Assembly (NCBI GenBank): GCA_026023565.1
Contig: JAPETS010000069.1
Location: 1-64,000 of the forward strand
From: Cirrosporium novae-zelandiae
Taxonomy: Eukaryota
Reading direction: 5' to 3'
Length of the DNA stretch: 64,000 nucleotides
This document shows, piece after piece, positions 1-50,798 of this stretch (position 1 is its first letter; the number at the start of each line of letters is the position of its first letter). The notes beneath the pieces are model-generated. The model saw nothing but the letters and a program-made list of their open reading frames with translations, did not search any database and was not told the origin of the DNA. The translations under genes and the position numbers were made by a program.

Positions 1-121
1 ATGCATCCAGGCCCTCGCCGTACTACTTCTGCACACGGCCTTTTTGTCCTACCAAATCTTTTCGCGGGTCACGTACTCGGCCTTTTTTTATTTTTCTAAA
101 TTTTTTTATCATTATCATTAT

Positions 122-374
122 TATTAGGGCAGCGCCACATTCAGGCTGTGTGATAGGATAACTATCTAAGTAGTGGGTAATTAACTAGAATACTATAGGG
201 TTCGTATTCGAGACGTCAGAATGATGATAGCTTTAGGAGTGCCCCCTGAGGTGGATGCAAAAGTTGAACGCTGCCCCCATAATACGTGGGGTAGCGTTCT
301 TCTTTATAGGATTACTCAGGCGCCAAGCGAGCGCTTCGTAAGCGCATAGACGTGATGCTTGGCATGCCCTAACA
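122..374 (-). mobile_element. LTR (253 bp), inverted copy of the LTR at 2266-2518
   Basis: The reverse complement begins TGTTAGGGCATGCCAAG and ends GGCGCTGCCCTAATA. It aligns end to end with 2266-2518, has the same length, and differs mostly by transitions. No TSD is visible. Confidence 0.9.
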
Positions 375-892
375 CAAACGCCATTCGAACGGTGTTATAA
401 ATTTAAACCGAGTTTACGTATAAATATCGATAGCGAAACCCTAGATAGGGAAACCCCGGCCGCAAAACATTTAGCGATCCATTCGTAGAACTTTTCCGAC
501 TAGTAAAACCAATAGGCCAAAATATTTATATATTGGAATTACCTCCTACTTATGGCCGAGTACACCGAACCTTCCATGTCTCATTGTTAGAACCATACAA
601 AAGAAAAAACGGTAAACCACCCCCAGACCCTATCCAGATAAATCATGAAGACGAATACGTCGTCGAGCAAGTATTAGGTGAACGTAACAAGCAAAGGGTA
701 CGAGAATTCCTCGTAAAATTAGAACGTTGGGAAGAAGAGTACAATAATTGGGAACTAAAAAATAATCTCGAGCATGCTCAAGAATATATTAAGGAATACA
801 GGGAAAGAAGCAAAGCTCAGAGAGTAATATTCCTAACTACTAAGCGGGCGAGCCGCAGGCGAGGCGCCCCAAAAGCGCAAGCCAATGTCTAA
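375..892 (+). pseudogene. Truncated C-terminus of Ty3/Gypsy integrase with chromodomain (chromovirus pol remnant)
   Basis: TPFERCYKFKP..., then IYILELPPTYGRVHRTFHVSLLEPY (GPY/F-module region) and the chromodomain EYVVEQVLGER...REFLVKLERWEEEYNNWE...NLEHA. It appears internally deleted and is cut at its 5' end by the inverted LTR. Confidence 0.88.
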
Positions 893-936
893 AAATACAA
901 ATTGGCATGATAGCCATAACCACCAAAGACCACAAT

Positions 937-1825
937 CTAATCAGAATCACTCATTGAAGTATTATCATCAGAACTAGAGGAAGCGTTACTAGTAGCTTCC
1001 CCGCCCTCGTCACGCAAGCGTCGGACTTCCTCAAGGGCCTCGTCAACAGCGACTCCATCTTCACTATCTTTCTCTCCAGAATCGTCATAACCTTTTTCAT
1101 CTTCTTGAGCGACGCCGGGCCAAGCAAAGGGCTCCAAATTGTTCTAGATAGGCGGTTAGCACGCGAAATATATGGAAAACTCGGACATACCACAAAGCAA
1201 TAGGCGTCAACGCCAGAACGAACGGCATAAGTTAAGGCACCAATAGTATTAAAAAGGTCGGAAGAATCGGAAAAGGCGGCGGAGCGACTAGCGAAAGCAC
1301 CAGAGCGTCGGCCGGATCGCATGGGAGAATCAATGGTGGCGGCGGCACTGGTTTTGGAGTTCTGCGTGCAATAATGGAGTGTAAGAGCATCCTCGATAAC
1401 TTGGGCACGCATCTTGGGCTCTTGATCGGCACGGTATGCAGCACTAGTCCAATGGAGATTCTCCACAGCGTTCCGAAGGTGGGGAGGGACCTGAACACGT
1501 GTTTAGCACGCGTCTAGCATAACAGCAACATGGGTATACTCACGGGAACACATGCATGGCGCATTTTTTGACATCTAACACACTTCTTCATACCAAACTG
1601 GATAACACATGTCGCAATACCTTCAGGATTTTTTATGTAACTTCTAACACATCGTTGACACCATTCTCTCCTGCGAACCTCAGTAGTTTTTGAGACTCAG
1701 TGTCCTGTATCTAGTAATTTTTTTGGCCTGTCAGGAGGTTTCCCTCCTGACCCACCAGAGACAGCACTACCACGACGGGAGGTCGCAGGTGCAACACCTG
1801 CGAGAAAACGAGAAGAAGCATTCAT
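937..1825 (-). pseudogene. Spliced antisense accessory gene inside the retrotransposon: variant Cys6 zinc cluster plus acidic C-terminus (~262 codons, one premature stop)
   Basis: Exons are 1825-1544, 1490-1191 and 1143-937. The phase-0 introns are 1543-1491 (GTGAGT..GCTAAAC..CAG) and 1190-1144 (GTATGT..GCTAAC..TAG). The motif is CQRC-x13-C-x8-CVRC-x6-C. There is one in-frame TGA at 1699-1697. Confidence 0.75.
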
Positions 1826-2250
1826 GATAACAATAAAAACAAATGATGTAAAGCGAACGAAGTATAGAAAGATAGTTGGTGAAAAGTAAACAAAATTATC
1901 AGAAAACAGATGAAATTAAGGTGGAAGAAAATATTTAAAGAAGAAAGTGAGAAAGAGAGAGATTTATAATCACAAGGACGTGTTGTCAATAAGCAAAATA
2001 TCTAACAACAACACTATTATCATCACTCTTAATTACGCGTTGCGCACGTTTAACACAATTATACTGTCAACAAATACTTCTACTACTGAAGTGTTTACCC
2101 CAAACAACACCGGGATTCAATAACACGTTGAGTTCCGCCTAGTAAGTCAGGGACTTGACTAGGTCCTCTCGTGCGAAGCACAGAGGTAGCTTGTCGTTAA
2201 CGCGATAATGGAGATGGCTATTGTCTATGAGGTTTGAGGCCAAACCTCCC

Positions 2251-2265
2251 AAGGAAGGGGGCAAT
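2251..2265 (+). other. Polypurine tract of the LTR retrotransposon
   Basis: AAGGAAGGGGGCAAT lies directly before the TG of the 3' LTR. Confidence 0.85.
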
Positions 2266-2518
2266 TGTTAGGGCATACCAAGTGTAGACATCTACGCGCC
2301 TGCGAGACGCTCGCTTAGCGCCTAAATAACCTTATAAGGAAGAACGCTGCCCCACGTCTCAAGGGGCAGCGTTCAACTTTTGCATCTACCTCAGGGGGCA
2401 CTCCTAAAGCTATCATCATTTTTGCGCCTCGAATGCGATCTCTATAGTATTCTAGTTAGTTAATCACTACTTAGATAGTTACCCTATCACACAGCCTGAA
2501 TTAGGCGCTGCCCTTACA
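2266..2518 (+). mobile_element. 3' LTR of the Ty3/Gypsy chromovirus (253 bp)
   Basis: TGTTAGGG...CCCTTACA termini form short inverted ends. It is preceded by the PPT and lies downstream of the integrase-chromodomain. Confidence 0.9.
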
Positions 2519-3007
2519 CATATGCTCTCAATATTAAAAAATCTCGAATAGAAAATGACTTAAGAGTATTCTGTTATTATTCACAACTTTGAACTCGACG
2601 ATATCTTTACTTAGAGGAACTGGCCATATAAAAATAACTGGACTGGTCCTTCTGCAAGTTCTGTTTTAGTAAATTTCTTTGGAAATCCTCCTCTCTTATT
2701 TTCCGCTGTTATATAAGTCGTGATTGCATCTAACGTGGTCTCCATCAATCTTCTTAGATTACGTCTTTTTTTGCAAATTCGAAGGGCTCCAAAAGTCAAA
2801 AAACGCCTCAAATATGCAAATACGAAACTCGCAACTCCGGTTCATAACGCGGCCTAAGTTAAGCTTAAGGCTTTCAACCTTCGGCTTAACTGGGTTTGTT
2901 TTTAGCGCTTCTAAGGCTAAAGTTATAAATATAAGTGTACTATATATTATACTTGCCTTTTTCTTCGTCTTTTTCTTATTTAAGAGGGATTCCAAAATAA
3001 AGTAGAA
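2519..3007 (+). mobile_element. Possible highly degenerate, AT-rich retroelement fragment
   Basis: A stop-interrupted frame near 2550-2630 reads ENDLRVFCYYSQL*TRRYLYLEELAI, with spacing like the Gypsy integrase E..LR.FC.Y.Q..W...L...E.A motif. The rest is uninterpretable. Confidence 0.3.
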
Positions 3008-25756: not shown

Positions 25757-28700
25757 TCACATGTTCGCTAGCTCCGCATCAATCTGTCGATCCAAGAATA
25801 CCCTCCTCTCGCCCGTCAGTTCCGTCTGTAATCTCTGCTCCACCAATGCGCGAACTACAACTGGTAGTCAGTAAATTGCCCCCAAGAGGACCGAGAGGGA
25901 AATATGTATGCACTTACCTTGCTTCTTGGTAACCGTATCCAAATCAACTTCAGAAAGACATGTTTGAATAGCTTCGATAATGGAAGCATCATCCGGGCCA
26001 TTAGCAATCCGCGAAAAGTCGACGGTACTGACGGGTCGGCTGTTAAAGCCCATGGCACTCCTAGTATTGCGGAGTGGGGGGGAGGGCATACCCATGAGGT
26101 TATCGGTGCTACGAGCGCCTGGTGGCATGCTAGCACGATTTTGTTGATAGGGATTGTCTGTAAAGCGGCCACTCATGTTGCCCATTGACATTTGGCGTTC
26201 TTGGCCGGGTGGATAGTCTGCGTACCGGGTCAAGTTGGACATGGTTGACTGTCGGTTTTGTACACCACCGAATGGAGCCGGCGACCGAGGAGGGATGTAA
26301 GGGGCCCGTTGGCCAGGGAACCCGGTCAAGATGGTGGACGCCGGTTTCACGGACGAGTACATGGAGCGAACATCATCCATTTCATATTCTTCGAATCCAT
26401 CTTGATACGGCTTTTCGCCACCGACAAAAGCACGTCGTCCAGGAAGGTTATTAGCAGCAGCATAATCGTCCCACCTTTGCAATGGAATGCTACGGGGATC
26501 AAAGCCTTCGTCCTGGAGGGCGATAATTTGCTTGTTACCTTTTTCGCCAATGACAATACGGGTGTTACCCCACGAAAAGTTGTCCTGATTCCAGAAAGCG
26601 TATACAGGAAGTAGAAGGTTGAAAATGGGAAATGCCATGATGTAGATGATCATCCATCCAATGTGCTGCCATTGTCGTCTGAGAAGGAAAATGAGAGCTT
26701 GCAATCCATATACAGCTGCAATCATGATAATGGAGATCAATGGGAATTGGCCAGTGTTAGTGGCGACCTTGTAAATGAGATAAGTGATGTATGCACATGT
26801 TGCTGGAAGAATGAGGGTGCCGAAAAGATCAATGAACACAACAAATCGCATGCTAAAACAGCAGAAACCACACATATCTTTAATCAGCATCAACTCCGCA
26901 AGGTTATGGATAGTCGAATTGATCCAACGACGTCTCTGGGAAAGCAGGATGCTCCAGGTCTCGGGTGCGGCGGTAAGCGCGTAAGCATCTGGAATGAACT
27001 TGAACGACATAGTTGGAAAGTGCTTGGTCATGATAGTCGTCAGAAATCGGTCTTCACCCAGAGATAAAAGGTTCTTTTTATGAAGTGTATCCACATCACA
27101 GTCGGAATATTCAAAGATGACTTTTTCGGAAATGATCAAGGGCTTCCCTTTATCGGCAGTTCGCAGACGATACATACAAAAGCTGGTGACGTTAGCTAAA
27201 TACCAAATATTGATGGATTGCCTTACCATCCGGGCAAACAGGTCACGCTGCCGAAAAGTGACTCGAAAGCTTTGGCCAAATGATGGGATATATAATATTC
27301 ATAAACCTGAATCATGGTCCACCAACTCCGCTCTTCATTTTCTAGACTAGTCTCACCGCAGATACCGGCAATCTTTGCATTATTAGTACAAGCGGCAACG
27401 AGACGATTGAGAGCATCCTCCTTGACACTGGTGTCAGCGTCAACCATGAATACATATTCATAAAGTTCAGGGTCAACACCAATGATATTGTTAATTTGGT
27501 GAAACATCTCCAGCTCCAAAGGCGACATTGGAGCTCGGTGGTGGACGCGATTGAGGAAGCTCATCAGCAAGATCTGAGAGTCTCGCTTGCCTCTATTTCC
27601 AGGCTTGGATTTCGTTTGCTCAGACTCTTTTCCGACTTTGACAACGACAAGGTACGGTACAACATTGCCTTCGTATTCGTAGAGACCAGAATAGACTTTG
27701 CCATAATTTAGTTGTTCGTTGCCTTGACCAACTGACTTGAATGGCAGTGCAGGAGGGTCGATTTTAGGATCGACGCCGAGAATATCGAGAACAATCTTTG
27801 GCGTTGGTCTGTCGTTGCCACCTCCAACAATCATACCGTCGCAGATGACACAGATAAGTTTTCTTTTGTTATCATACTGGAGCGCGGTAAGGGAGTCGAG
27901 GCCTTTCCGTAAATGATCTTCTCCCTCGGTGTATGCAGGGACCTGGCAAATAACGAATCTATCCTGGGGGGTCGGGCGCGGCTTGGAACCAAATTGAAGG
28001 GCAGACAAGAATTTGATCAAGATAACCGCGCACAGAATGATGGTGAAAGCCAACAGCAGGTAGTTGTTGAACTGACATTTAATGGAGTCTCGAAAGTCGA
28101 CCCTGCCCACGTAAAAAGCATTCTCCATGCAGTTCAGGGCGTTGGTAAAATTGGCAGTTTTCTTCCATTTGGATGTGACATCCTCACCAGGATTGTTTTT
28201 GATCACCTCTGAAACATCGTCGGGAAGCCATGAATATGAGGACAGGTCATCCTCCAAGTCCAGGGTGTAATAGTAGTCCGTTAGATCATAAATTTTATCG
28301 TCGATAATTACCCAATCATGATAGCCTGCTTGACCCTGCTTATAAACATAACTTTTAGTCCATACCAAGTCACCTTTGTGGTATTGTTTGATCTTTGGTA
28401 AGAATCTCTTCGTGTACCAATGTGTCTCCGCTAGTTTGCTGGTAGTATCTGTTGCATAATATCCAGATACATGCTCAGCGTTTGAATACGTAAGGGTCTT
28501 ATTCGATTCAAGTTCCATTGTTTTAGAAGTAACAAGACCAGGGCAGGCAATAATAAGTGGTGGTGGGAAATATCCATCCATGTTCTCACCCATAAAAGGT
28601 GACATGTTAGATGTCGTTGTATCGATGTCTGTATCACTGTGTTGCAACTTCCAGAATTTCGTTATATCGTAGACCTTGCCATGAATACTGACGTAAAAAT

Positions 28701-31193
28701 CATTGGTTCCTTGATGCTCCGAAACCTCTTTGTTGTTCCAAGCCTTGTCGGAGTCGGGACAAAGAAGATTACCAAATTCGATAATATAAAAAACGATAGT
28801 GGCGTTGAGGAGGAAGATGAGCATCATGAGCGCTAACTTTTCTCTCCATGCTTGACGAACATCAGGCCGCTTCATACGGCCAATATGACGAAGCAGAAAT
28901 GATGGAATCCACCAGGTGCAAGCCCAAGTGAACGCAACCCAGGCTTTCCTCCCTTTCGTAATGGGTTTTTCGGTCACTGACTTTGGGTCACCCATCTCTG
29001 GGTCTAGTTCACCATAGTAGGTCACTCCATGGGTGTCGTCTCCTTTGGGTCCAAGTCCGTAATCACCACCAGCAGCAGTGTTGATTGTGCGGGCCACAGT
29101 TGGAGCGACGGAGCGGGCACCACCCATGGCACTTCTCGCCGCTGTAGCGGAGCTTTGCTGCCGGTTTAGAAGATTGTCGGTACTCTCTCCAGGAATCATT
29201 CCCTCACCCATTGGAGGGAAGAAACCACTGCCATTTCCAGGAGTTTGTGCAGAGTAACCGCTATTGTATCCACCCATGCCAGAACCATCGTTGAAAGGAT
29301 TCATTGACTTGACATCCAGCATAGTTTCCGCCTCCCACCAAGCATTCTCGCGCATCCAGATGCGCTCCTCGCCAATGACAACCTCTCCATTACTCCAGCC
29401 GCGCTCGAGGATCCAATTTTCCACGCCATCCTTCCCTTCACTACAACCAAGGACCGAGTATCGAGAACAAAACTCCTCTACATCGAAATCGGCAGTGAAA
29501 TCCATATGCCTATTACGACGGTTTGCCCACTCAGGCAGTCTCCAAGCACGTAATTGACGCGAGACGGTTCCGGCAGACCATGCATATGTTTGTGATGCCA
29601 GAGTAGCAAGAGTGGCGGGAGCGTCATCAGTCGGGTGGACATCCAGATGATACCACACTCTGGTACTGGCTAAAAGCGCAGGAAGGTCGAACCGCCCATG
29701 TTTTCCGATACTGATGCCATCTCCTTCGATTGGATACAGAATCTTCTTCACGAAGCCATCATCCTCCACTTCAACTCCCACCTTTTCAAGGATGCTCTGT
29801 CGACGATCATGCTCATAGTCGCGCTCATTACTCATGGGCCCGCTTGAAATGCCGAGATCTGCAGCAACTCCGTAAACGGCACTATTCATCTCTTTTATAA
29901 CAGATGCACCGGCTGATACGATTTCAACACCATCCCGCTTCATCTCGGCATTAATGCCAGTGGTGTCGTCAAATACACCTCGTAGCCCAACGGCTCTTCC
30001 GAGCTCTTGATTCGGAACGTCGACGACTGTCAGGCTAACAATATCGGCATCGTTTCCTTCCAACCCAGGAGAATGGGGACCAGAACTTCCACTGCTACCA
30101 GCATCTTTCGTTGGCTTAAGTTCAGCAGCAATAGCTGCATTGGCCTTTGATATAACCCAATCGACAACCGCCTCGTAGATACTGGCTATCAAAATCCCTC
30201 GTTCATCGGTAGTACATTTCTTTACTAGAACTTCCGGGTCGACCCCCAATAAGCCGCCCACATCCTCACAGATATCATCCAGGACTTCTTCGTCAATCAT
30301 GAACCCTAGCATGTCGCCGAGTTTCAGGAGACCAGCCAGCGTTGAAATCAAGTCTCGATGTGTAGCACCTTTTATGCCTATGGCTTTCAGAGCAGATCGG
30401 AAATCCTCGGCGGCGGCGGTATCATCGGCAGCTGGCAGGTATGTTGGAGGCTCAAAAGTACTAGTTCGGTTGAGTAAAGCATAGGATGATGCAGATTTCA
30501 ATCCTAAAAACTCTCTTTCAGCAGGAGTTGAAGCTGAAGTAAGAAGATAGTAAAACACGTCAAATGCTCGGTACCCAGGTTCTGCAGGAACACCCAACAG
30601 ACCAGCAGTTGTGTCAAGCCCAGAACTTGAAAGGGCTAATGACACCCCGTTAAGTTCTCCAGTAAGTGTAAGAGTAAATGAAACGGCTAAGGCGGAGTGC
30701 CGAGATGCTGAAGGATTATAAGGTGTGACACATTTTAGGAAAGGCGAAATGGCAGCAACAGCAGTATGATAGATAGACGGAATTGCAAGGGGAAGTGATT
30801 GGATAAAGGGCGTTAAAAGTGATGGTGTGCCCTGGTGCAAAGACCTATGGGTTGCAATCAGTAAAGTAGTCTTAACGGTCTTTCCTTGGATTCTTACCCT
30901 AAAACTATACATCCATCCTCTGCTCTCCTCCTCGCATGTTCCCAAGCCTTTCGGGCTAACTCAGGATCAACAGTGCCACCGATGCTCCCATCCTCTCTTA
31001 CAGTTGTCGCTGTCAACCATGTGTTGACAGTTAGACTTGTACTTGAATCAAGCTGATATGGGACTCCTGAGGTGTATGCTGTATGAAGGTTGTTAAGGAT
31101 AGTTGTGGTTGACACCTGCGTTGCCTGTTGTGGTGCCACTCGCGCAGCAGAAACATTGGAGAAGCTTGACAGTCTGTTTTGGTTAGCAGCCAT
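25757..31193 (-). CDS. csmB: Class VII chitin synthase with short myosin-motor-like domain, cytochrome-b5-like domain and DEK-C (CsmB/ChsVII-type)
   Basis: [43 protein letters not shown] and a C-terminal [15 protein letters not shown]. The N-terminal motor-like region has no P-loop. Confidence 0.93.
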
Positions 31194-33617: not shown

Positions 33618-36600
33618 ATGGCCCTTAACTCCTTGACTGGGACCACTGGAGCCCATTCTCAGCCGTCATTACCTGCCTTGCCTGCTCATTTACAGTCGGA
33701 TACACATCTTACAGCACATTTAGCAAGTCGGTCAGTATCAATTTTCGTATGCCATAGTCACATTGAGCTTAACTAACGTGGCACAGTTTCCATGTCTCTC
33801 TACCAACAGCGCGCCTCTCATCACAAGGCTTCATATCATTAAATACATATACAGCGCCCACCAAAGGCCCAAACGGTGGAAAAGAGGGGAGTGCTGCAGG
33901 AGAGGCGGAAGATCTCGCAACTCGGGCATTGGCCAGACTTGGATGCCGAGGAGAAAATCAGGCTGTATTGTTTTTGTATGCCTATACTTATTTCTCTACT
34001 TTAACGTTGCATAGGGCGTCAGGACTAACCAAGATCTCATAGGGGAGAATCTGGATCTGGAAAAACGACTATTCGGTCTCATCTTCTATCTTCTCTACTT
34101 GCAGCTTCTGCTACACCGTTGTCTACAAAGCTTTCTCTTGCTGCCTTTCTTTTTGATACCTTAACGACCACTAAATCTGTTACCACCCCAACCGCTTCAA
34201 AGGCGGGGTTATTTTACGAGCTTCAGTATGATTCCGCATCGTCTACCCATCCCACGCTTATAGGAGGTAAAATACTGGATCACAGATTGGAGAGGAGTAG
34301 AATTGCCTCAGTGCCAACTGGCGAACGAAGTTTTCACGTGTTGTATTATCTACTGGCCGGAACAAGTCCACAGGAAAGATCACACTTGGGTCTGGATAGT
34401 TTGAAATCCACCGGAGGAGATGGTGCTGGAAATCGATCATCTGGAACACTTGGCCACAAGCGATGGAGGTACCTTGGCCATCCAACACAATTAAAAGTCG
34501 GAATCAACGATTCTGAAGGATTTCAGCATTTCAAGACGGCACTAAGAAAGCTCGAATTTCCAAGGGGTGAAATTGCAGAAATTTGTCAACTCTTGGCTAG
34601 TATTCTTCATATTGGGCAGTTAGAGTTTACCTCTGGTCAATCAACCACACCCTCAGGTGATGATAGCGGTGGTTATTCCCACGAGGGGGGTGAAACAGTC
34701 ACCGTGGTAAAGAATAAAGAGGTTTTAAGTATTGTCGCTGCATTTTTAGGGCTTAGTATCTATGCACTTGAAACAAGCCTTGGATACAAGACCAAAACCA
34801 TACATCGGGAGAGGGTTACTATCATGTTAGACCCCAAGGGTGCCCGTAATAACGCGGATGAGCTTGCACGCACTCTCTACTCTCTTCTGGTTGCATACGT
34901 GATCGAGAACATTAACCAAAGGGTTTGTGCTGCTGAAGATGCTGTGGCCAACACTATCTCTATCATAGATTTCCCTGGATTTTCCCAAATGTCATCTACA
35001 GGATCGGTGCTCGACCAACTACTCAACAATGCCGCTACCGAAACACTCTACCATTTCTGCCTTCAAACCTTCTTCGAACGATCGGCTGAGATGTTGGACA
35101 CCGAAGAGGTCAGTGTGCCAGCTACTAGTTACTTCGACAATTCCGATGCTGTCAAAGGTCTGCTCAAACATGGAAACGGCCTCTTAACAATCCTAGATGA
35201 CCAAACCCGTCGAGGAAAGTCAGATATGCAATTCCTTGAGAGCATAAGAAAACGTTTCGATGGGAAGAACCCTGCCATTGCAGCTGGAAGCGCTACTACC
35301 ATCATACCCGGTAGTAACTTTGCTACACATAATGCCGCCGCATCTTTCACGATCAAACATTTTGCCGGAGAAGTCGAGTATCCCATTGCTGGCCTTGTTG
35401 AAGAGAATGGAGAAATTATATCAGGAGATCTGATGAATTTAATTCGTTCTACCAAGAGTGACTTCGTGCGGGATCTATTTGGACAGGAAGCACTGAATGC
35501 AGTCAGGCATCCCCGAGAGAAGTCTGCCATTATCCAAGCCCAGGTAAGCTCGAAGCCATCGCGGATGCCAAGTATGGCAAAGAGAAAAGGAGAGCGGCCT
35601 GCCCGATTCCAGTCACACGCCGAGAGCGAGACACAGTCGATGATTGAAGAAGATGATGATGAAACCGGCCACCGCCGTCATCGGAAACACAAGGACGGGA
35701 GGACAATGTTGATGGGACCTGACCAAGGTGCTGCTGGTCAGTTTCTTTCATCGTTGGATAACATCACAAGATCCATCGCCATCCAGAACACCAACTCATA
35801 TTTCGTCTTTTGCCTAAAGCCAAATGATAGGCGGATCGCAAACCAATTCGATAGCAAATGCGTTCGGACCCAGATGCAAACATTTGGTCTAGCAGAAATC
35901 AGCCAACGCCTCCGAAATGCCGACTTTAGCGTTTTCTTGCCCTTTGGAGAATTCCTCGGTTTAGCTGAGCCCGAGAACATGATTGTTGGTAGTGAACGAG
36001 AACAAGCAGAAGCTATCCTTGATGAAAAAGGGTGGCCTGGCAATGAAGCAAGGGCAGGAAGCACCGGTGTATTTCTTAGCGAAAGATGCTGGGCTGAGTT
36101 GGCCAAGCCAGAGGAAAAAGGGTTTGGAGGTGTAAAATATTACGCTGGTGGAGGGGATGATGAACCTAGAGACGGACTTACCCCTGGGGATGCCAGCAGG
36201 GGTGGCTATTCAGACTCCAAAGTTCGACTTCTGTCACCAAATGATGCCTCTCCTAATACTGGTGCATACGTATACGGAGACGACACCAAAGGTGGTTATT
36301 TTGGTGGTCGCGAGTTGGACTCTCGGTCAGAGGCTGGAGCTTCAGCCTTTAACTCCGGTGATATGTTCCGCAATCTCGAGACTAGGGAACAAATGGCGGA
36401 AAAGGGCAATGAGAAGAAGATGGAGGAAGTCGATGACGTCAAAGAAAGTGGAGCCCGGAAACGATGGCTTGCTATCGTCTGGATTATGACTTGGTGCATT
36501 CCGGACTTCATGATCAAAGTAATTGGTCGCATGAAACGACCAGACATCAGATCAGCCTGGCGAGAAAAGCTTGCCATCAACATGCTGATCTGGGGTGCCT

Positions 36601-39429
36601 GTGGATTTGCCATCTTCTTTATTGTCGTATTTCCCGACTTGATTTGTCCCACCCAGCATGTCTACTCCGCCGCGGAACTATCTTCATACAACGGAAAAAA
36701 TGACAAAAAGGCGTATATCGCCATCCGAGGCGTTGTGTTCAACCTGGATTCTTTCGCACCTACACACTACCCTGACATTGTTACGCAAAAGTCCATATTG
36801 AAATATGCCGGAGAGGATGCAACTGCGTTATTTCCTGTTCAGGTTTCTGCTTTGTGTCAAGGCAAAGATGGGAAAGTTGACCCTACGGTATTACTCGATT
36901 ACAGTCCCACAAATTCTTCCGGATCAGCCACAGCAGCTTCGAGTACAGATACCGTTGCTTCTTATCATGATTTTAGGTACTTCAGAAATGACTCTCGTCC
37001 AGATTGGTTCATGGAGCAGATGATCATGCTGAAGCACAATTACAAAAAGGGTAACATCGGGTATACTGCAAAGTACGTCAAAAAAATGGCCACTGCGGAT
37101 AGTGATCCATACTCTTGGGCAATTTTAAACGGGAAGATCTACGACTTCACCGACTATATCAAGGGTGGCCGTCGCACCAAAGCTCCTGTAGGCAAGTCTG
37201 TTCCTAGCGATGTGGATACGGACTTCATGAATTCCCTCGTGGTAAACCTTTTCCAACAACGAGCCGGCCAGGACGTTGGCAAATACTGGAAGGATCTCGG
37301 CATGACCTCAGCAATGAAAAACCGGATGCAGCTCTGCTTGGATAATCTTTTCTATGTTGGCGACGTCGATACCCGAAGTTCTACTCAATGTTTGTTTGCT
37401 CGTTATATTTTGCTAGCCATATCTATTCTTTTGGTCTCCGTTACTGGCTTCAAGTTCTTTGCTGCTTTGCAATTCGGTCAGAAAAATGTACCAGAACATC
37501 TGGACAAATTTATCATCTGTCAAGTTCCAGCATATACCGAGGACGAAGACTCTCTTCGACGTGCCATCGATTCCATCTCCCGTATGAGATATGATGACAA
37601 ACGCAAACTCCTAATTGTTGTCTGCGACGGTATGATTATTGGTCAAGGCAACGACAGGCCTACACCCAGAATTGTCTTGGACATTTTGGGTGTCTCTGAA
37701 ACCGTTGATCCTGAACCTTTGAGTTTTGAATCTCTTGGAGAAGGGTTAAAGCAGCATAATATGGGCAAAGTTTACTCCGGGTTGTATGAGGTCCAAGGCC
37801 ACATCGTTCCGTTTCTGGTGATTGTCAAAATTGGAAAACCATCGGAAGTGTCCAGACCTGGAAATCGTGGTAAGCGTGACTCGCAGATGGTTCTCATGCG
37901 ATTCTTGAATCGCGTTCATTACAATGCACCTATGAGCCCGCTAGAACTGGAGATGCACCACCAAATTCGGAATATTATTGGCGTTAACCCTACCTTCTAT
38001 GAGTTTATGCTTCAAATAGACGCAGATACCGTGGTGGCACCTGATTCTGCAAGTCGTTTCGTTGCTACATTTTTGCGTGACACCCGTCTAATCGGTGTTT
38101 GCGGAGAAACTGCACTATCAAATGCCAAATCTTCTTTCATCACCATGATGCAAGTCTACGAATACTACATATCACATAACCTAACCAAGGCTTTCGAAAG
38201 TTTGTTCGGCTCCGTTACTTGCCTACCTGGATGCTTCACCATGTACCGTATCCGTACGGCTGAAACCGGTAAACCCCTTTTCGTCAGCACGGAAATTATC
38301 GAAGGCTATTCAATCAATCGCGTTGACACACTTCACATGAAAAACTTGCTCCACCTTGGAGAAGATCGGTATCTCACCACGCTTCTATTGAAATGGCACT
38401 CGAAGTACAAGACAAAGTATATTTTTAATGCTCATGCCTGGACTATCGCCCCTGAAAGCTGGGCCGTCTTTCTGTCACAACGTCGACGATGGATCAACTC
38501 TACCGTCCATAATCTTGCGGAACTTATTCCTTTAAGTCAACTTTGCGGTTTCTGTTGTTTTTCAATGAGATTCGTTGTCATGATTGATTTGTTCAGTACA
38601 ATTATCCAGCCTGTTACAGTCGGTTATCTTGCGTATCTGATCGCCCTTCTCATAATAAAACCAAGTTCCGTTCCCACCATATCAATTATTCTTCTCGCCG
38701 CTATTTATGGGTTACAAGCAATCACTTTTATTTTGCGGAGAAAATGGGAAATGGTGGGATGGATGATCATGTATATCCTTGCTATGCCAATCTTCTCGCT
38801 AGCCCTTCCACTCTATGCGTTTTGGCACATGGATGATTTCTCCTGGGGTAACACTCGTGTTGTCACTGGTGAAAAGGGCCGTAAGGTTCTCATCTCTGAC
38901 GAAGGGAAATTTGATCCTGCTTCCATACCCAAGAAGAAGTGGGAGGAATATCAATCCGAACTCTGGGAAGCTCAAACCCGGGATGACCATTCCGAAGTAT
39001 CTGGCTACTCTTACGGCACTAAGTCTTTTGCCGGCATGGGGGCTCAATCTGAATACGGCTACCCTCCATCACGTCCCATGTCCCAGATGGATATGCCCCA
39101 CTATGGATCAAGAATGTCGCTTGCGGCATCGGATGCACTTGGCCGGGCACCTTCGGGTGCCGGTGGCGAGATGGAGATGGCAGAAGTCCCAGTGAATATG
39201 CCAAATGACGATGCCATATTAGCAGAGATTAGAGATATTTTGAGGACAGCAGACCTCATGACGGTCACTAAGAAGAGCATCAAGATGGAACTGGAGGCCC
39301 GGTTTGGAGTTCCAATGGAGTCGAGGAAGGCATATATTGGTTCTGGTAAGTCAATCAAAATCAACCAAGACAAATTCAAGCTAATTCAAATGTGCAGCCA
39401 CGGAAGCTATATTATCAGGGCAATTGTAA
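33618..39429 (+). CDS. csmA: Class V chitin synthase with myosin motor domain (CsmA/ChsV-type)
   Basis: Begins MALNSL...[16 protein letters not shown]-loop [49 protein letters not shown] domain; ends [10 protein letters not shown] after the last intron. Confidence 0.95.
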
Positions 39430-40667
39430 TTGTGGTCAGAGCAACAATAACAACAAGCAATCTTAATAATTCAAATGTATTTACCCGTCAAGCTCGAAGG
39501 GAAAGTGAAATAAGGTGGAAGAAGGAGAAGGAAGAAATCTTTTTTGGGATGTTATTTTTGCATTGAATCGGCGTTTTTTTCTCTTTTTTCATGGACCAAG
39601 GCAAGCGACGAAGACGATTAAAGTTTCAAAGCAATCAACCAGCTGTGATAATATAAAACTGAAAGTGAATTAAACTATAACTGTTGATTGATTGCTTCAT
39701 GGATTAGGCCGGTGCCAACTAACTAAATTATGTAACCAAAGGGTTGTTTTGTTTTCTTACTTATTTTCGTGTACTGTTGTTATAGGCATGGTTATATTTT
39801 TATATTCCAACATGCTTATAGCACAACCCAAATTATATATCCTAACACTAACACAAAGTTAATTATCCCTTTAACCTCAAAGTTCCATCACAATACCCCA
39901 CGTCTTTTTTTTATAGGTAATTGTCACGAATAAGCGGCCCAGGGGAGAGAGAGGCGCGAGGCATAGGAGAGAAAAAAAATACACCTTTATAAAAAAATTA
40001 ACCTGAACTTAGGTGCTATATAGTCCGTAAAACCGTTCAGCCTTGTTGGAGGGGCGTATTGAGGGGCACGCTGAGAGGGCGCATTAGCTAGATTATCTCT
40101 AGAAAATCAAGGAATTTACTTCACACTACTCCACATAATATTTTGACTGGTTCTCATTGCTTTTAGTCACCCTTGCTCTTCTTGGTTTCAGTCGAGGTAC
40201 TACCACAGTAGGTAGATGTCAATGAGGCATTTGGGGTGGTTTCTTTTGTTTGATCTGTTTGCATTTTTAAAAACACCTAGAGAAAATAATCAACAGTCAA
40301 CAATATTTTTCGACCATACAATTAAACATTTGTAGTCATCATCTCTGGCTATTAGTTTGATATTTATCTTTTTTTCGTTATGGACAAAGGCTTTTGTTGG
40401 CGCTGGGTACGCCTAGGCATTGGTTGCTGCAGAAGGGTTGTTGCGCCTCTGCGGGAAACCCCTCAGTCAAATTATTGAGAATTCTGTCGCCCCGCGAGCG
40501 CATTCCAAGAGTGACTCGAGAAACATGGCTGACCAAGCATGCTAAGAACCTGTAAGCAGTCTTGCGTAATGAGACAATCTTCACATTCTAGGCTATTAAA
40601 AGCAGGCTGAGAGTCCTATCATTACATATGGCATAGTGAAAATTATTCAAATTGGCCTAATTTACAT

Positions 40668-44023: not shown

Positions 44024-44066
44024 GCATGCCATTGAGCCTTTCCTTTCAATTTGACATTTTTTGACC

Positions 44067-46509
44067 ATGAATCCGAGTCGGTCTATATCCCCTGGGAGTA
44101 TCTCAACTAGATCGTCGCCTGCTCACACTCCGTTGGCGGCTAGTCATAAGAGGAAAACTTCTAGGGCTACTGATTCAGGAGGTGAACGCAAGAAAACCAC
44201 TAGAGCATGTGACTGTTGTAAGACGTACGCCTTGACAATTGATGAAAATATTAGTTACACATAACAGACTGACTTCACTACCATTCAAGTAAAAAGGTCC
44301 GATGCTCTGGGACAAGGCCTTGTTTGCGATGTACTCGTTTGAAAGTGCCTTGTGAGTATCGTGCATCTTATTCCAGGGGACAACCTCCAGCCCCATTGCC
44401 AGCTTCAGCTATCTTGTCATCTCATGAGAACACTGAACATTGTGAATCATATCTTGAGATTACCCAAAGAAACCTTACCAGCGAGATGGGCGTTCATATA
44501 GTTCGGGATGAGTCAATTCTTCCTCCAGATTTGACCCCATCTACAAACGAGCCGGAACCTGGCGCAACTGATCTTGAGGGGCATTATCTGGGGCCTGGGT
44601 CTGGTATCAGTTTCTTGAACCGTGCTTGGCAACGTCTTAATCAGAACAGCACAACAAGTGTTCCTTATAATTTACGCAATGAGATTCCTCGAAACGCCGC
44701 TATTTTTACTTTCGGTGATAGACCGTTTGTGGATTTCCATGAGGCATGTATTAAACTGCCTTCGAGAAAGCGTGCGGATGAGCTTATTGTTATATTTTTT
44801 GATTTTGCCCTTGCCACCTACCGCTTCTTGCACTTTGGAACTATACAATCATGGCTTTCTGAGCTTTATGAGAGAGAACAGTCCCAATGGAAGAAGATGT
44901 CAGCGAAGGCTGCAGCAATTTTCATGGTTTTTGCTATGGCGCTCTTGCATGAAGAACAGCAAGCGCCAAGAGATGCGGCCAATCCGGAGGCTGATAAAAG
45001 GTAAATCTGCTTCCTTTGAGGCCCTGCAGTAGAAAAGGGTTGCATTGTTTCAAACATTCAAAGGAAGGCGTTGCTAATTGCTGAAGCGAAATCTGGTACT
45101 ACTTTGCCAAGAGAATGCTCTCTGTCGAATCAGGTCCTCCAAAATTAGAATCTGTTCAAGCCAGGTTCGTTCAATGTCTCTTTCTTCTGGCTTCTTCTCG
45201 AGCAAATCAATGTTGGTATACGTTTGGAACTACAGTTCACCTTTCTATGGCATTGGGTCTCCACCGACGAAGGAGTGCTGTTACTAGTAAAGGGTTAAGA
45301 CAAGATGGTGGATATATCCGAAATGAGTGTCGTAAGCGAGTTTTTTGGAACTTGTATACACTAGATAAGTACTTGAGTGTCATGCTAGGACGTCCAAGAC
45401 ACTTCCACGACGAAGATATCGACCAGGACTACCCAGACGAGATCAATGACGAGGATATGACACCTGACGGGCCGGCAGAGGAGAGAGGCCGTTCTGATTG
45501 TGTAATGACCGCTACTGTCAGTCATGCTAGGCTTAGCAGGATACTTGGCGAAATATCTCGACAAGTATACAGCATTCGACCTATTCCTGAGTGTGCACGT
45601 TTGGAGATTGCTGAACGACTCACACATGAACTAAAAGAATGGAGAGCCAGTCTGCCTCCCCTCCTAAGCAGTATACGACCCTCCAGTCTCATACGCCCTT
45701 TTCGGCGCCAGAACACTGTGCTAAAGTTGCTCTATGCTCATGCGATAATCCATGCAAACCGTCCGTTTCTCTTAAGCAAGTGTTCCGATGGTATAAATTT
45801 TTCTTCAAATGTGGAGATTGACAGAAAAATTGAAGAGCATATTCGGACCTGTGTCGAGGCGGCAAAGACAGTCGTGGATACAGTGAACCATCTTGCTGAA
45901 TTATTCAACCAAACACAATTATTCGAGGCTTTCTGGTTCACTCACTATGCAGCATTTTGTGCAGTAGTTGTTTTGTACGTTTACATAATTCAACAGTATC
46001 GAAATAAAAAAGCCCAACAGGACCCATCAACTTGCCAGAATCTTCTCTTCTTGTCAGAACGCTGCCAGCGCACTCTTGCTGTTGCGACAAAGAGAAACTG
46101 TCCTAGTTGGCGGTATAGTATTATTCTTGAAGAGCTTCGCTTGGATGTTCACCGTCAAATTGATCGCCTGTTGCCTCAATTCCAGCTAGATTCAACTCGG
46201 AAGGAGAGGGTTCCCCCTGGCCCTGAAACCAATATCTTCAATGCTACGCCGCGAACTCCACTTTCTCCATTTTCACAAGACCACACCCAAGCATTGGGCC
46301 ATACTACATATAGACCCACCAACATCAACAGTCATTCCGCTGTAATGCCGGACATTCCAAATTCTAATACACTAGATATGGTAGACCCTTCAACCGAGTC
46401 ACTGGTTGATCAAGTTGTTACACCAGAATTGTTCGAGAATTGGGAGCTGATGGATTGGGCACAGCTTGATTCTTTCATATTTGAAACAGATCTAGCAACG
46501 TATTTATAG
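44067..46509 (+). CDS. Zn(II)2Cys6 transcription factor with fungal-specific TF domain; multi-exon
   Basis: RACDCCK|KKVRCSGTRPCLRCTRLKVPC across an intron. HYLGPGSGISFL, ALGLHR, RKRVFWNLYTLDKYLSVMLGRP, acidic C-terminal tail. Confidence 0.93.
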
Positions 46510-47169: not shown

Positions 47170-47375
47170 TGACATGCGTATCCATGTTGCTATGCTACAT
47201 ACTAAGTACTGGGTTTTGATGGATTTTCATAGATATTTAAACATAACGTGAAGGTAACTGCATGAATATTCTTCTTATTATCTCTATCTTAACCTTTGAC
47301 TAAGAAGCTTTATCAATTATTTGTTAAATATTTCTCAAGTTGTTAAGGATTGCCAAAATATCGTCATTATTCAAA

Positions 47376-50300
47376 ATGTTATCCGTCATCCCTCCTCCTA
47401 CTGAACAACCACATACACATTTCGTGCCTGAAGTACCAGTGAACCCAGTCCCAATACCAAAGGTCACTCAGCCAAATCCACAGCCTTTAACGGTTGAGGA
47501 ACTCATACAAGACCGCTTAAACCTTGACATCCAACCTGTCATTTCATACCCATCATCCGGTATTGAATACGTTGATTGCCCTATAAATCAACTCGATACT
47601 TTCGCTTTCCGGGTAGCCAAGAAGTACGCTCAATATATTCCTCCAAGATGCTCTTCGTCCGAAAAACCAGTCGTGATAGCATTGCTTGGCCCTTCCACTC
47701 TCGATTACCTCGTTACGATGCTAGCGCTTGCGAAACTTGGTCATACCGTGCTTTATTTGTCGACGAGGATATCCAAGGAGGCACATGAGAATCTGCTACA
47801 GTTAACGGGCTCCAGCAACATTTTCATTCATCCCTCTTTTCGAAAGCTGGCAACTTCTCTTCAAAAGGATCTTCCAGAATTGGAAGTCTACGAGATTGCT
47901 GAACAGAATTCATACCATTATGATATTGGGCAGATCCTTTCGGACACAAGACTAACAAAGGGACTGGATCCCGAGCAGGAAACTGGGAATGTTGCATATA
48001 TAATTCATTCGAGCGGTTCAACCGGGCTTCCAAAACCCGTCTTTTTGACGCACAGAGCTGTGATTAATAATTATAGCCAGAATGTCAATATGCGGGGATT
48101 TATCACATTGCCATTATATCACGGACACGGAATTTGCAGCTTGTTTCGAACGGTTTATTCTTGCAAGTCACTACATCTCTATAACGCTAGCTTGCCCCTT
48201 ACAAAGCAATATCTGGTCGACACTATGCGTGCACATGATTTTGAAGTCTTTTATGGAGTTCCATATGCTCTCAAATTACTCGCGGAGAGCGAGGAGGGCA
48301 TTGAATTATTAGCCAAGTTTAAGATTGTGATGTTTGGAGGTTCTCCTTGCCCAGATTCTTTAGGGAATAAATTAGTTGCCCGGGGCGTGAACTTGGTCAG
48401 CCACTATGGAACGTATGTGTTTCTTTCTATAACCTGAAAGCTTAACTGTCTATATGCTGACAAGCATTATAGAACCGAGACTGGACAGCTCATGACGTCG
48501 TTTCGACCACCGGGAGACGAGCAATGGGACTGGGTTCGCCCAAACCCTCGGGTAAAACCGTATCTCCGTTTCGAAGAAAGAGGAGATGGTTTATATGAAC
48601 TTATCAACCTTGATGGATGGCCATCTAAGGTGACCATGAATAGACCGGATGGCTCCTATGCCACCAAGGATCTCTTCAAGAAGCACCCGACCATTGAGGC
48701 ATATAAGTATTACGCACGCCTGGATGATACAATCGTACTTGTTAATGGAGAGAAGGCGATTCCTCTGCAGATGGAGGGAGCTATTAGAAACAATGGACTT
48801 GTCGCCGAAGCAGTGGTTTTTGGTAGTGGGAAGGCTAGTTTGGGGTTGATGCTTATTCCGTCACAAGATGCTGAAGGTCTGTCCAAAGTCGAGATCCTTA
48901 ACGCTGTATGGCCTTCGGTGGAAATAGCAAACGAGGCTATGCCTGCATACGCAAAAATTTCAAGGGACATGATAATTTGCCTGCCAGTCGGAACAAAATA
49001 TCCAGTCACTGACAAAGGAACTGTCATCCGACAAGCCTTCTACTGTCACTTTGAGCAGGAGATTGAATGCTCATACGAGGAAAAGGACGAAGGGGACTTG
49101 GATCTATCCGAACTAGAACTACGAGATTTCATCAGAACCCAGATGCAGGAGATTATTCCACTGGACGACCCTTCTCAGCTGACGGATGATACCGATTTCT
49201 TCAGCCTGGGAATGGATTCCCTCCAATCTACCCGATTACGTGCGGTGCTTTTCAAGAACCTTGATTTGAAGGGGCAGAAGTTGGGATTGAATGTCGTGTT
49301 TGATTACCCTACTATCCGTCTCTTGGCAAAAAATATCGATTCTATTCGCGCAGGAGTCACTACGGAAAGAGAGTCGGTCGAGGACGAGATGAGAGCTCTT
49401 ATTGAAAAATACAGCAGTTTCAAGAAACATATTCCGGGCCTGGAAGGTCCAGAAGGACAATACATTGTAAACCCCCCTTACATACTTAGACAATCCCCCT
49501 AAACAAGCCACGACTAACAACCCCCTCTCCAGCTCGTCACTGGTGCCACTGGCTCCCTCGGCGCCCACACCATCGCCCACCTCGCAACCATCCCTTCAGT
49601 AAAAGAAATATACTGTCCCATCCGGGCCACCACCCCCAGCGCTGCTCAAGCTCGCCTCCACGCCTCCCTAAGAACGCGCAACCTAATCCTTTCCCCAACC
49701 TCACTCTCAAAACTCCACCCATTTCCCGCAGCTCTCACCTCGCCAACCCTCAGCCTCCCCCCAGAAACCCACACCCACCTAACAACACACCTAACTCATA
49801 TCCTCCACCTTGCCTGGTCCGTAAACTTCAACCTGCATCTCCTATCATTTTCTGACTGCCTCCTCACAACCCAAAACCTCATCGGCCTCTGCCTGTCCTC
49901 CCGGCGCCCTGCCCCGGCGACCTTCACGTTCTGCTCCTCAACCAGCACATCCACCCGCACACCGCCAGACGCCATCATCACAGAAGCCCTCCCGACCTCC
50001 TTCACCCACGCCCAAAAAATGGGCTACGCGCAAAGCAAACTCGTTGCCGAAAATATCTGCCACCGCGCAGCAACCCAGAATCCGAATTTACCTATCAATG
50101 TCGCCCGCGTGGGGCAGATCATCGGGGATACCAAGTCCGGGATCTGGAATCCGAGGGAATCGATACCCATGATGCTGCAGACCGCAAGAACCATTCACGC
50201 GCTGCCGAAACTAGATGAGGAGATTAGATGGTTGCCTGTTGATATTGTCGCAAAAGGACTTGTAGAAATCAGCCTTAATGGGCCTCCTCCTAGCTCCGAT

Positions 50301-50798
50301 AATGCTACCACCACCACCATTCCAGAGCCAAACCTCCCCAACACCTTCAACATCCTAAACCCTCACCCCCTCCACTGGACCCGCGACCTCCTCCCCCTCT
50401 TACGAACCACAACGCCAAGCCTCCCCGCCTTCGAAAAAGTAAGCACGATGGAATGGCTTGAGAGATTGAGGGGTTCGGATCCGGATCCGGAACGGAACCC
50501 CCCGGTTAGGTTGTTGAAGTTTTTTGAGGGGAGGTATGGGGGTGAGTGGGTTGGTGGTGAAGGTGAGGGTGGGTGCATGGATGATGATGGAGAGGTGGGA
50601 GGAAAGATGGGGATAATAAAAGTATTCAATAAATGGGAAACCCGCAAAGCGCAAGCGTGGAGCGAGGCACTGAGGGAAGTCGCAATGGTGGAAGGGGGGG
50701 TTGTTGGGAGTGCTGTTTTGGGGAGGATTGTTGGGTATTTGATTGGGGTTTGGGATGCAGAAGAGGAGGAGAAGATGAGGAAGAAGGAGATATCATAA
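47376..50798 (+). CDS. NRPS-like adenylate-forming reductase (A-T-R carboxylic acid reductase type); 3 exons
   Basis: A domain: HSSGSTGLPKP, HYG|TETG, YATKDLF, RLDD, TDKGT. T domain: FFSLGMDSL. R domain: LVTGATGSLG, HLAWSVNF, YAQSK, RVGQIIG. Introns at about 48412-48471 and 49468-49532. Confidence 0.92.

Follow-up and report, generated by a model that had tools for sequence, protein, structure and literature searches.

The window analyzed here comprises the first 64,000 nucleotides of contig JAPETS010000069.1 (assembly GCA_026023565.1) of Cirrosporium novae-zelandiae, a Xylobotryomycete ascomycete, and carries near its left end an antisense, intron-bearing gene enclosed by the remains of a long terminal repeat (LTR) retrotransposon. 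Here it is proposed, with about even confidence for and against, that this locus is a decayed antisense accessory gene (aORF-3R) that once belonged to a Ty3/Gypsy chromovirus of this fungus. The proposal is based on the position of the gene between the integrase remnant and the 3' LTR, on its orientation opposite to pol, and on a reading frame that opens only across two introns. The parts of the locus, with exon boundaries and products taken from the sequence and its translation, are the following:

122-374, minus strand: inverted LTR; in a self-BLAST, 126-374 aligns with 2514-2266 at 85.6% identity; the integrase remnant meets its outer 5' end TGTTAGGG at 374/375
375-892, plus strand: C-terminal integrase remnant of a Ty3/Gypsy chromovirus, with an open frame at 449-892 and stops or a frame change before 449
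937-1143, minus strand: exon 3, 68 codons (1143-940) for an acidic, Ser-rich tail, followed by a TAG stop at 939-937; contained in the public gene model P0003
1144-1190, minus strand: intron 2, 47 nt, phase 0, GTATGT...GCTAAC...TAG; P0003 uses the same junction (YCFV/NNLEP)
1191-1490, minus strand: exon 2, 100 codons, 100% identical in translation to residues 8-107 of P0003
1491-1543, minus strand: intron 1, 53 nt, phase 0, GTGAGT...GCTAAAC...CAG; P0003 uses the same junction (CVP/VPPH)
1544-1825, minus strand: exon 1, with the ATG, 42 basic Ser/Gly-rich codons, a TGA at 1699-1697 and 51 codons with six Cys, ending in ...RHACVP
1826-1968, minus strand: promoter-like region, TATAAA at 1968-1963 and then a pyrimidine-rich tract, for which a promoter role is suggested by the sequence
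2251-2264, plus strand: polypurine tract (PPT) AAGGAAGGGGGCAA, one base ahead of the LTR
2266-2518, plus strand: 3' LTR, 253 bp, with ends TGTTAGGG...CCCTTACA, member of a multi-copy family

Structure and coding character of the antisense gene

The gene opens with the ATG at 1825-1823 and spans 937-1825 of the minus strand, its three exons giving a product of 262 codons when the TGA is counted as one (42+1+51+100+68). This TGA at 1699-1697 is the only one in frame and stands ahead of the Cys module, which has the spacing C-x2-C-x13-C-x8-C-x2-C-x6-C within a basic segment (pI 9.9). Exon 2 probably has a helical start followed by a Ser/Ala-rich stretch, and 21 of the 68 residues of exon 3 are D or E (pI 4.05). 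The gene lies tail to tail with pol, the antisense TAG and the integrase stop being separated by 44 nt. An earlier interpretation made from the letters alone (the sequence-only reading) had given the ATG, the TGA, three exons, two phase-0 GT-AG introns, a GCTAAC branch site and an acidic last exon, all of which agree base for base with the coordinates listed here, and its Cys spacing is reproduced by the translation. The T-rich, promoter-like stretch that it had placed upstream is also seen, as the TATAAA box and a tract at 1962-1826, directly upstream of the ATG, that is 77% pyrimidine.

Without splicing, all six frames across 940-1825 are interrupted, by 8-18 stops each, and the antisense frame is therefore open only when spliced. 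The donors GTGAGT and GTATGT, the CTAAC branch site, the YAG acceptors and the lengths of 47-53 nt are canonical for introns of Pezizomycotina. The statistical weight of this arrangement was measured as the longest stop-free path through 893-2260 with at most two phase-0 introns, compared with 200 dinucleotide shuffles. Under a strict intron rule (GTRNGT, CTRA branch motif, YAG, 40-100 nt) the observed path has 230 codons, against 87 +/- 21 in the shuffles (maximum 182), and under a lenient rule (GT..AG) it has 275 codons, against 139 +/- 32 (maximum 255), so that none of the 200 shuffles reaches the observed length under either rule. The plus strand of the same interval gives 93 codons under the strict rule and 182 under the lenient one. 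As a native control, 78 windows of the same size without a 150-codon open reading frame (ORF) on that strand peak at no more than 146 codons, compared with 230; this control carries little weight and is partly circular, because the candidate region itself has an unspliced frame of 183 codons.

Codon usage points in the same direction. With a codon table derived from 11,118 codons in 19 long open frames in other parts of the window, most of which have ordinary host domains, host frames score 0.166 +/- 0.068 bits per codon when read in frame and -0.38 +/- 0.23 when read out of frame. The proposed antisense frame outscores the other five in each of its four segments, with 0.17 bits per codon for 1825-1700, -0.056 for the Cys segment at 1696-1544 (best, but marginal), 0.241 for exon 2 and 0.377 for exon 3. 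These tests support the presence, opposite to pol, of a gene-like unit with introns.

Part of this unit has already been annotated. P0003, an NCBI hypothetical protein of C. novae-zelandiae with 175 aa, is the only protein returned by exon 2 among 5.8 billion clustered proteins and is 100% identical to it. The model begins at the Met of MRHACVP (window position 1564), ends at the stop at 937 and uses exactly both proposed junctions. It lacks the 87 upstream codons because the TGA blocks them, and hence it is without five of the six Cys; ahead of its Met the frame is nevertheless open for 44 codons and then, past the TGA, for 42 more back to the ATG. As it stands, this copy could yield at most the 175-residue C-terminal part, which corresponds to P0003. 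The gene had been called hidden by the sequence-only reading, and this holds for the 87 upstream codons with their five Cys, which are unannotated, but not for the C-terminal 175 codons and the two introns, which are already in P0003. The public model supports the exon structure, although it may not be fully independent evidence, as the same sequence signals could underlie both.

The chromoviral carrier and the proposed history of the gene

The carrier fits a Ty3/Gypsy chromovirus: the C-terminal part of its integrase includes a chromodomain, and a PPT and an LTR bounded by TG...CA follow. In Pfam, the open frame at 449-892 matches SH3_Tf2-1 (E 2.2e-9, profile positions 21-64 of 64) and Chromo (E 2.1e-8). 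A complete element was not found in the window, in which gag, protease, reverse transcriptase and a 5' LTR are all missing, and bases 1-121 contain no integrase-like frame. The carrier is a dead stump, cut at 374/375 by the inverted LTR. Belonging to the same family, this inverted copy probably represents a solo LTR that truncates the integrase remnant; along its own strand, neither a PPT ahead of it nor a TGG resembling a primer binding site (PBS) behind it is present. The sequence-only reading had described the antisense gene as lying inside a Gypsy retrotransposon; its place between the integrase stop at 892 and the PPT and 3' LTR at 2251 and 2266 is borne out, but only the last 1.9 kb of the internal sequence is left.

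Within this remnant, the antisense gene and its upstream region occupy the entire 1.36-kb spacer between pol and the PPT. The aORF-3R position is that between the pol stop and the PPT or 3' LTR, opposite to gag-pol, and the order found here is the pol stop at 892, the gene at 937-1825 on the minus strand, the PPT at 2251-2264 and the 3' LTR from 2266. By position and orientation, the locus belongs to the known antisense aORF class of LTR retrotransposons.

The distribution of the carrier family was followed in one public DNA run, X1, with 36 million letters of contigs, which contains 94% of the sampled words of 400-2600; contigs were aligned at a likeness of at least 80%, and they show presence, not absence. 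In all, 120 X1 contigs were aligned, of which up to 14 have a common variant at 2482. The breakpoints of six contigs fall at 374 and those of ten at 2518, with flanks that are mutually unlike (agreement 0.53 and 0.45, respectively), and such breaks into disagreeing flanks at both LTR ends fit a family made up of many solo LTRs. No shared PBS-like or PPT-like continuation was seen at the LTR ends of the other copies in this run. Contigs are more numerous on the 5' part of the inverted LTR than on the direct copy, and the inverted copy looks nearer to the bulk of the family. Farther to the left, bases 1-100 have a summed word depth of ~55,700 in X1, compared with ~355 for unique sequence, and 83-131 were skipped as repeats; this AT-rich sequence beyond the inverted LTR is part of a very abundant or simple repeat.

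If the locus is a decayed accessory gene, it would have been part of an active element, located in the 1.36-kb spacer between pol and the PPT and transcribed toward pol from its own putative promoter with the TATA box and pyrimidine tract. Introns on the antisense strand are not seen by splicing in the sense genomic RNA and can pass through reverse transcription. Both introns would here be spliceosomal on the antisense strand only, and would thus have been kept in the sense RNA and carried through reverse transcription. The predicted product of 262 residues would have a basic, Ser/Gly-rich N-terminus, the six-Cys module, a partly helical, Ser/Ala-rich middle and the acidic tail, and by analogy with other antisense accessory proteins it may have had a regulatory function for the element in the nucleus, and the antisense RNA might have a damping effect of its own. 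After the death of the element, the gene would have decayed along with it. There is one disabling change in the 262 codons of the gene and one frame break, before 449, in the integrase remnant of ~170 codons, and this similar damage fits the decay of both since the death of the element. Restoration of the stop codon by A-to-I RNA editing (PMC10776026) was considered and set aside, as nothing in the present data bears on it and UGA is absent from the available part of that paper's text.

Relatives, the cysteine module and rival explanations

The sequence-only reading had compared the six Cys with a GAL4-like Zn2Cys6 cluster and had proposed a comparison with profile models. No Zn_clus match (PF00172) came out of this comparison at E<=1 or E<=10, whether the query was the 51 aa of exon 1, the 94 aa obtained by reading exon 1 through its stop, or the open frame of 60 aa, and the resemblance to GAL4 is therefore not upheld. 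The Pfam library is sensitive enough for this purpose, since a fragment of the window (44273-45004) with only Cys 3-6 of a host factor scores 26.3 bits against PF00172 (E 8.2e-6), the gathering score being 21 bits. Members of the Zn2Cys6 family follow the pattern C-x2-C-x6-C-x5-12-C-x2-C-x6-8-C. The antisense module shares with them six Cys in a basic segment, and its second half, C-x8-C-x2-C-x6-C, is within the family range, but its first loop has 13 residues instead of 6, over twice the family length and outside the family spacing. As far as sequence comparison can tell, the antisense product is not a recognizable GAL4-type Zn2Cys6 protein; that the six Cys could bind metal is a conjecture. 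The host gene used as the control encodes a Zn2Cys6 transcription factor at 44055-46509 (plus strand), with a Fungal_trans domain at 45085-46506 (E 3.6e-34) and an intron that splits its zinc cluster between Cys 2 and 3.

Relatives of the protein were sought in several collections. An exhaustive, profile-free search covered exon 2 only and, against all 1.84 billion cluster representatives, returned exon 2 itself and two proteins (P0004 and P0005, E 2e-5 and 9e-5) that were rejected as internally repetitive and of low complexity, with four matched stretches each. Exon 1, with an X at the stop, had no match among longer proteins and proteins of similar length in a word-indexed search, which is less sensitive. 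One JGI metagenome contig (L001) matches 26 residues at 58%, but this match was seeded by the scanned pattern TIDSPMRS in a Ser/Ala-rich stretch and was rejected as due to chance; its other segments have E >= 1.4, and it does not match exon 1. At L001:139-216, the octapeptide TIDSPMRS and a Ser-rich context are common to it and exon 2, and this is the sole outside sequence that touches the protein, probably by chance. Genome contigs of GTDB contain no relative with P0003 as the query, nor does IMG/VR with the integrase remnant as the query, and a megablast against plasmids returned nothing from a collection that is ill suited to a fungal element. In a PDB sequence search, exon 1 reached RNF4 only at E 0.13, with no stretch passing alone, and this candidate was dropped. 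The ESM Atlas gave no feature score of at least 0.9 (best 0.89 for exon 1 and 0.76 for P0003), and its structural matches had a TM-score of at most 0.38, on a model with a mean predicted local distance difference test (pLDDT) of 0.49; none of these leads was borne out. DUF3716 (PF12511) had an Atlas score of 0.77, the family being found on 28% of the members of one cluster, and was rejected as a weak lead, with no Pfam match at E<=10.

A number of results weigh against an accessory gene of the element. Apart from the locus's own P0003, no exon has a relative in the 5.8 billion clustered proteins, and Pfam assigns neither the exons nor P0003 to a family, whether at E<=1 or E<=10. The codon score of the Cys segment is only marginal and the weakest of the four, and single-sequence AlphaFold2 models are of low confidence, with a mean pLDDT of 53.7 for the Cys segment of exon 1 and 43.8 for P0003. 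In composition, the gene body has a GC content of 0.49, compared with 0.41 and 0.38 in its flanks, and a TpA/ApT ratio of 0.80, compared with 1.2 and 1.12 in the flanks and 0.74 in the rest of the window, all of these being noisy values from short stretches. A single X1 contig, the locus's own (1,720 bases, 345-2064, no differences), covers 401-1900, and its depth of 357.9 matches that of the unique host flank (352.8), while contigs are numerous on the LTRs. In X1, both the antisense gene and the internal fragment therefore look single-copy, on good though not conclusive evidence, and nothing marks the antisense gene as a regular part of the element family. The comparison with other genomic copies that had been suggested with the sequence-only reading thus found none, there being no second copy over 401-1900 in X1 at the likeness used and other LTR copies having unlike flanks. 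In two further runs of the same study, X2 and X3, no contig lies on 1-3000 at 80% likeness, which is no proof of absence.

These same results keep three other explanations alive, because there is no second copy or relative and the gene body has a host-like composition. One is a host-derived gene, either a cellular gene captured into one copy or a lineage-specific host gene amid retrotransposon debris, which in neither case was ever a regular component of the element. A single copy in X1 beside multi-copy LTRs would be expected of it, the GC and dinucleotide indices of the gene body are near the host background and unlike the element flanks, and rearrangement of the locus is evident from the inverted LTR at 122-374. 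This explanation is nevertheless considered improbable, given that no parent or paralogue appears, with no second contig in X1 and the locus's own model as the only protein match, that capture from an mRNA would be expected to leave an intronless gene, and that transduced sequences are usually sense-oriented (PMC7264820). A host gene set by chance between unrelated fragments would moreover need breaks inside both of the narrow gaps beside it, 893-936 and 1826-2250. Another explanation is a domesticated or newly arisen host gene, in which the relic spacer yields the 175-residue P0003 that serves the fungus and the Cys region is a 5' leader. It accounts for a 175-codon model that is stop-free and has canonical introns, and for exons 2 and 3 scoring highest, above the host mean; that this is the sole internal element fragment aligned in X1, among LTR copies with unlike flanks, could mean retention by selection. 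Its probability is put low, however, as 86 of the 87 codons upstream of the Met are open and coding-like, which a leader does not need, the predicted structure is mostly disordered, and orthologues in other species are absent from the clustered proteins, JGI metagenome contigs and GTDB contigs; the absence of contigs on the locus in the two other runs of the same study is weak evidence in the same sense.

The remaining explanation is that there is no gene, and that an ab initio gene finder and the sequence-only reading alike took up open frames and splice-like motifs that are chance products of a retrotransposon spacer. The lack of homologues, of a Pfam family and of high Atlas scores, the low structure confidence, the in-frame stop and the marginal score of the Cys segment would all be accounted for in this way, as would P0003, which may rest on the same sequence signals and is to that extent not fully independent. 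Chance alone is, however, a poor account of a spliced path that no shuffle reaches under the strict or the lenient rule, of a frame that is best of six in every segment, of two introns with strong donors, a branch motif and the modal fungal length, and of a TATA box and pyrimidine tract at the expected distance, and it is given little credence. The decayed accessory gene of a chromovirus is the reading preferred here.

Elsewhere in the window, two divergent chitin synthase genes are found at 25871-30960 (minus strand) and 34029-39563 (plus strand), each with myosin-motor, cytochrome b5 and DEK_C domains. A head-to-head pair of chitin synthase genes is typical of filamentous ascomycetes. Three consecutive open frames at 47328-50795 (plus strand) have AMP-binding, AMP-binding_C_3 with PP-binding, and NAD_binding_4 domains, and look like one intron-split gene for a carboxylate or aminoadipate reductase similar to nonribosomal peptide synthetases (NRPS-like).

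Comparison with known antisense genes of retroelements

Antisense genes of LTR retrotransposons are known but poorly understood, and the fungal literature searched gave essentially one case, brtn, which was reportedly described by Zhao et al. 2011 (Virology 417:248). Were there another case in fungi, with introns removed by the spliceosome and a promoter of its own, genes of this kind could not be regarded as peculiar to one family, and it would also exemplify antisense introns surviving reverse transcription naturally. In word searches of the open-access literature, which do not prove absence, no fungal chromovirus was found described as having an antisense accessory gene with introns. The material presented here is weak, consisting of one decayed copy without relatives, and its value is that of a flag for intact relatives in other Xylobotryomycetes and allied fungi.

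Antisense extra ORFs between pol and the 3' LTR are known in Boty, Grande, RIRE2 and Retand (PMC7264820). According to the parts of the sources available, brtn is an antisense additional gene of the Ty3/Gypsy elements Boty/BcGypsy1 in Botrytis cinerea and Sclerotinia (PMC8365987, PMC7264820). As described there, it resembles the present gene in being an extra gene of a fungal Ty3/Gypsy element, opposite to gag-pol and between pol and the 3' LTR. It differs in being present in several element subfamilies and copies, in the available text of PMC8365987, whereas the present gene comes from one locus and is likened to brtn by position and orientation.

In plants, the aORF-3R genes include gene23 of maize Grande, the antisense ORFs of rice RIRE2 and Silene Retand, and the ORFs of Retand with a TRP28 domain (available text of PMC7264820 and PMC11963269). 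The same texts give the Grande antisense gene an upstream promoter of its own and a nuclear product, and report that a regulatory, possibly DNA-binding role of the plant aORF-3R genes has been proposed, not proven (PMC7264820, PMC11963269). Conservation in most copies of an element family is what separates aORF-3R genes from a one-off capture (PMC7264820). The present gene is similar to those of plants as an antisense ORF in a long spacer between pol and the 3' LTR. However, theirs are found in non-chromovirus plant lineages, in spacers of 2.9-6.6 kb, and are conserved in most copies and across species, whereas the present gene is from a fungal chromovirus, fills 1.36 kb together with its spacer, contains two introns and lacks known relatives; the TRP28 domain (PF04195) was not found in it by Pfam.

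Outside the retrotransposons, HBZ is a bZIP protein and nuclear regulator of an animal retrovirus, made from a spliced transcript that starts in the 3' LTR. In the available text of PMC11963269, HBZ of HTLV-1 is given as a retroviral antisense gene. The putative promoter of the present gene differs in lying in the internal region, and its product is without a bZIP or other recognized domain; the two genes are alike in being antisense, at the 3' end of a reverse-transcribing element, and in having a spliced transcript, predicted in the present case, and, if the proposed role holds, a product that regulates in the nucleus. Fungal antisense genes with introns could survive retrotransposition, and unsampled relatives could hold a new family of small zinc modules, if a bolder and rather doubtful reading were true, in which the locus would be the last trace in this genome of a fungal chromovirus lineage with a self-promoted, spliced antisense gene, whose product would combine a new six-Cys metal-binding module and an acidic tail and regulate the element or host silencing in the nucleus, like HBZ or gene23 of Grande.

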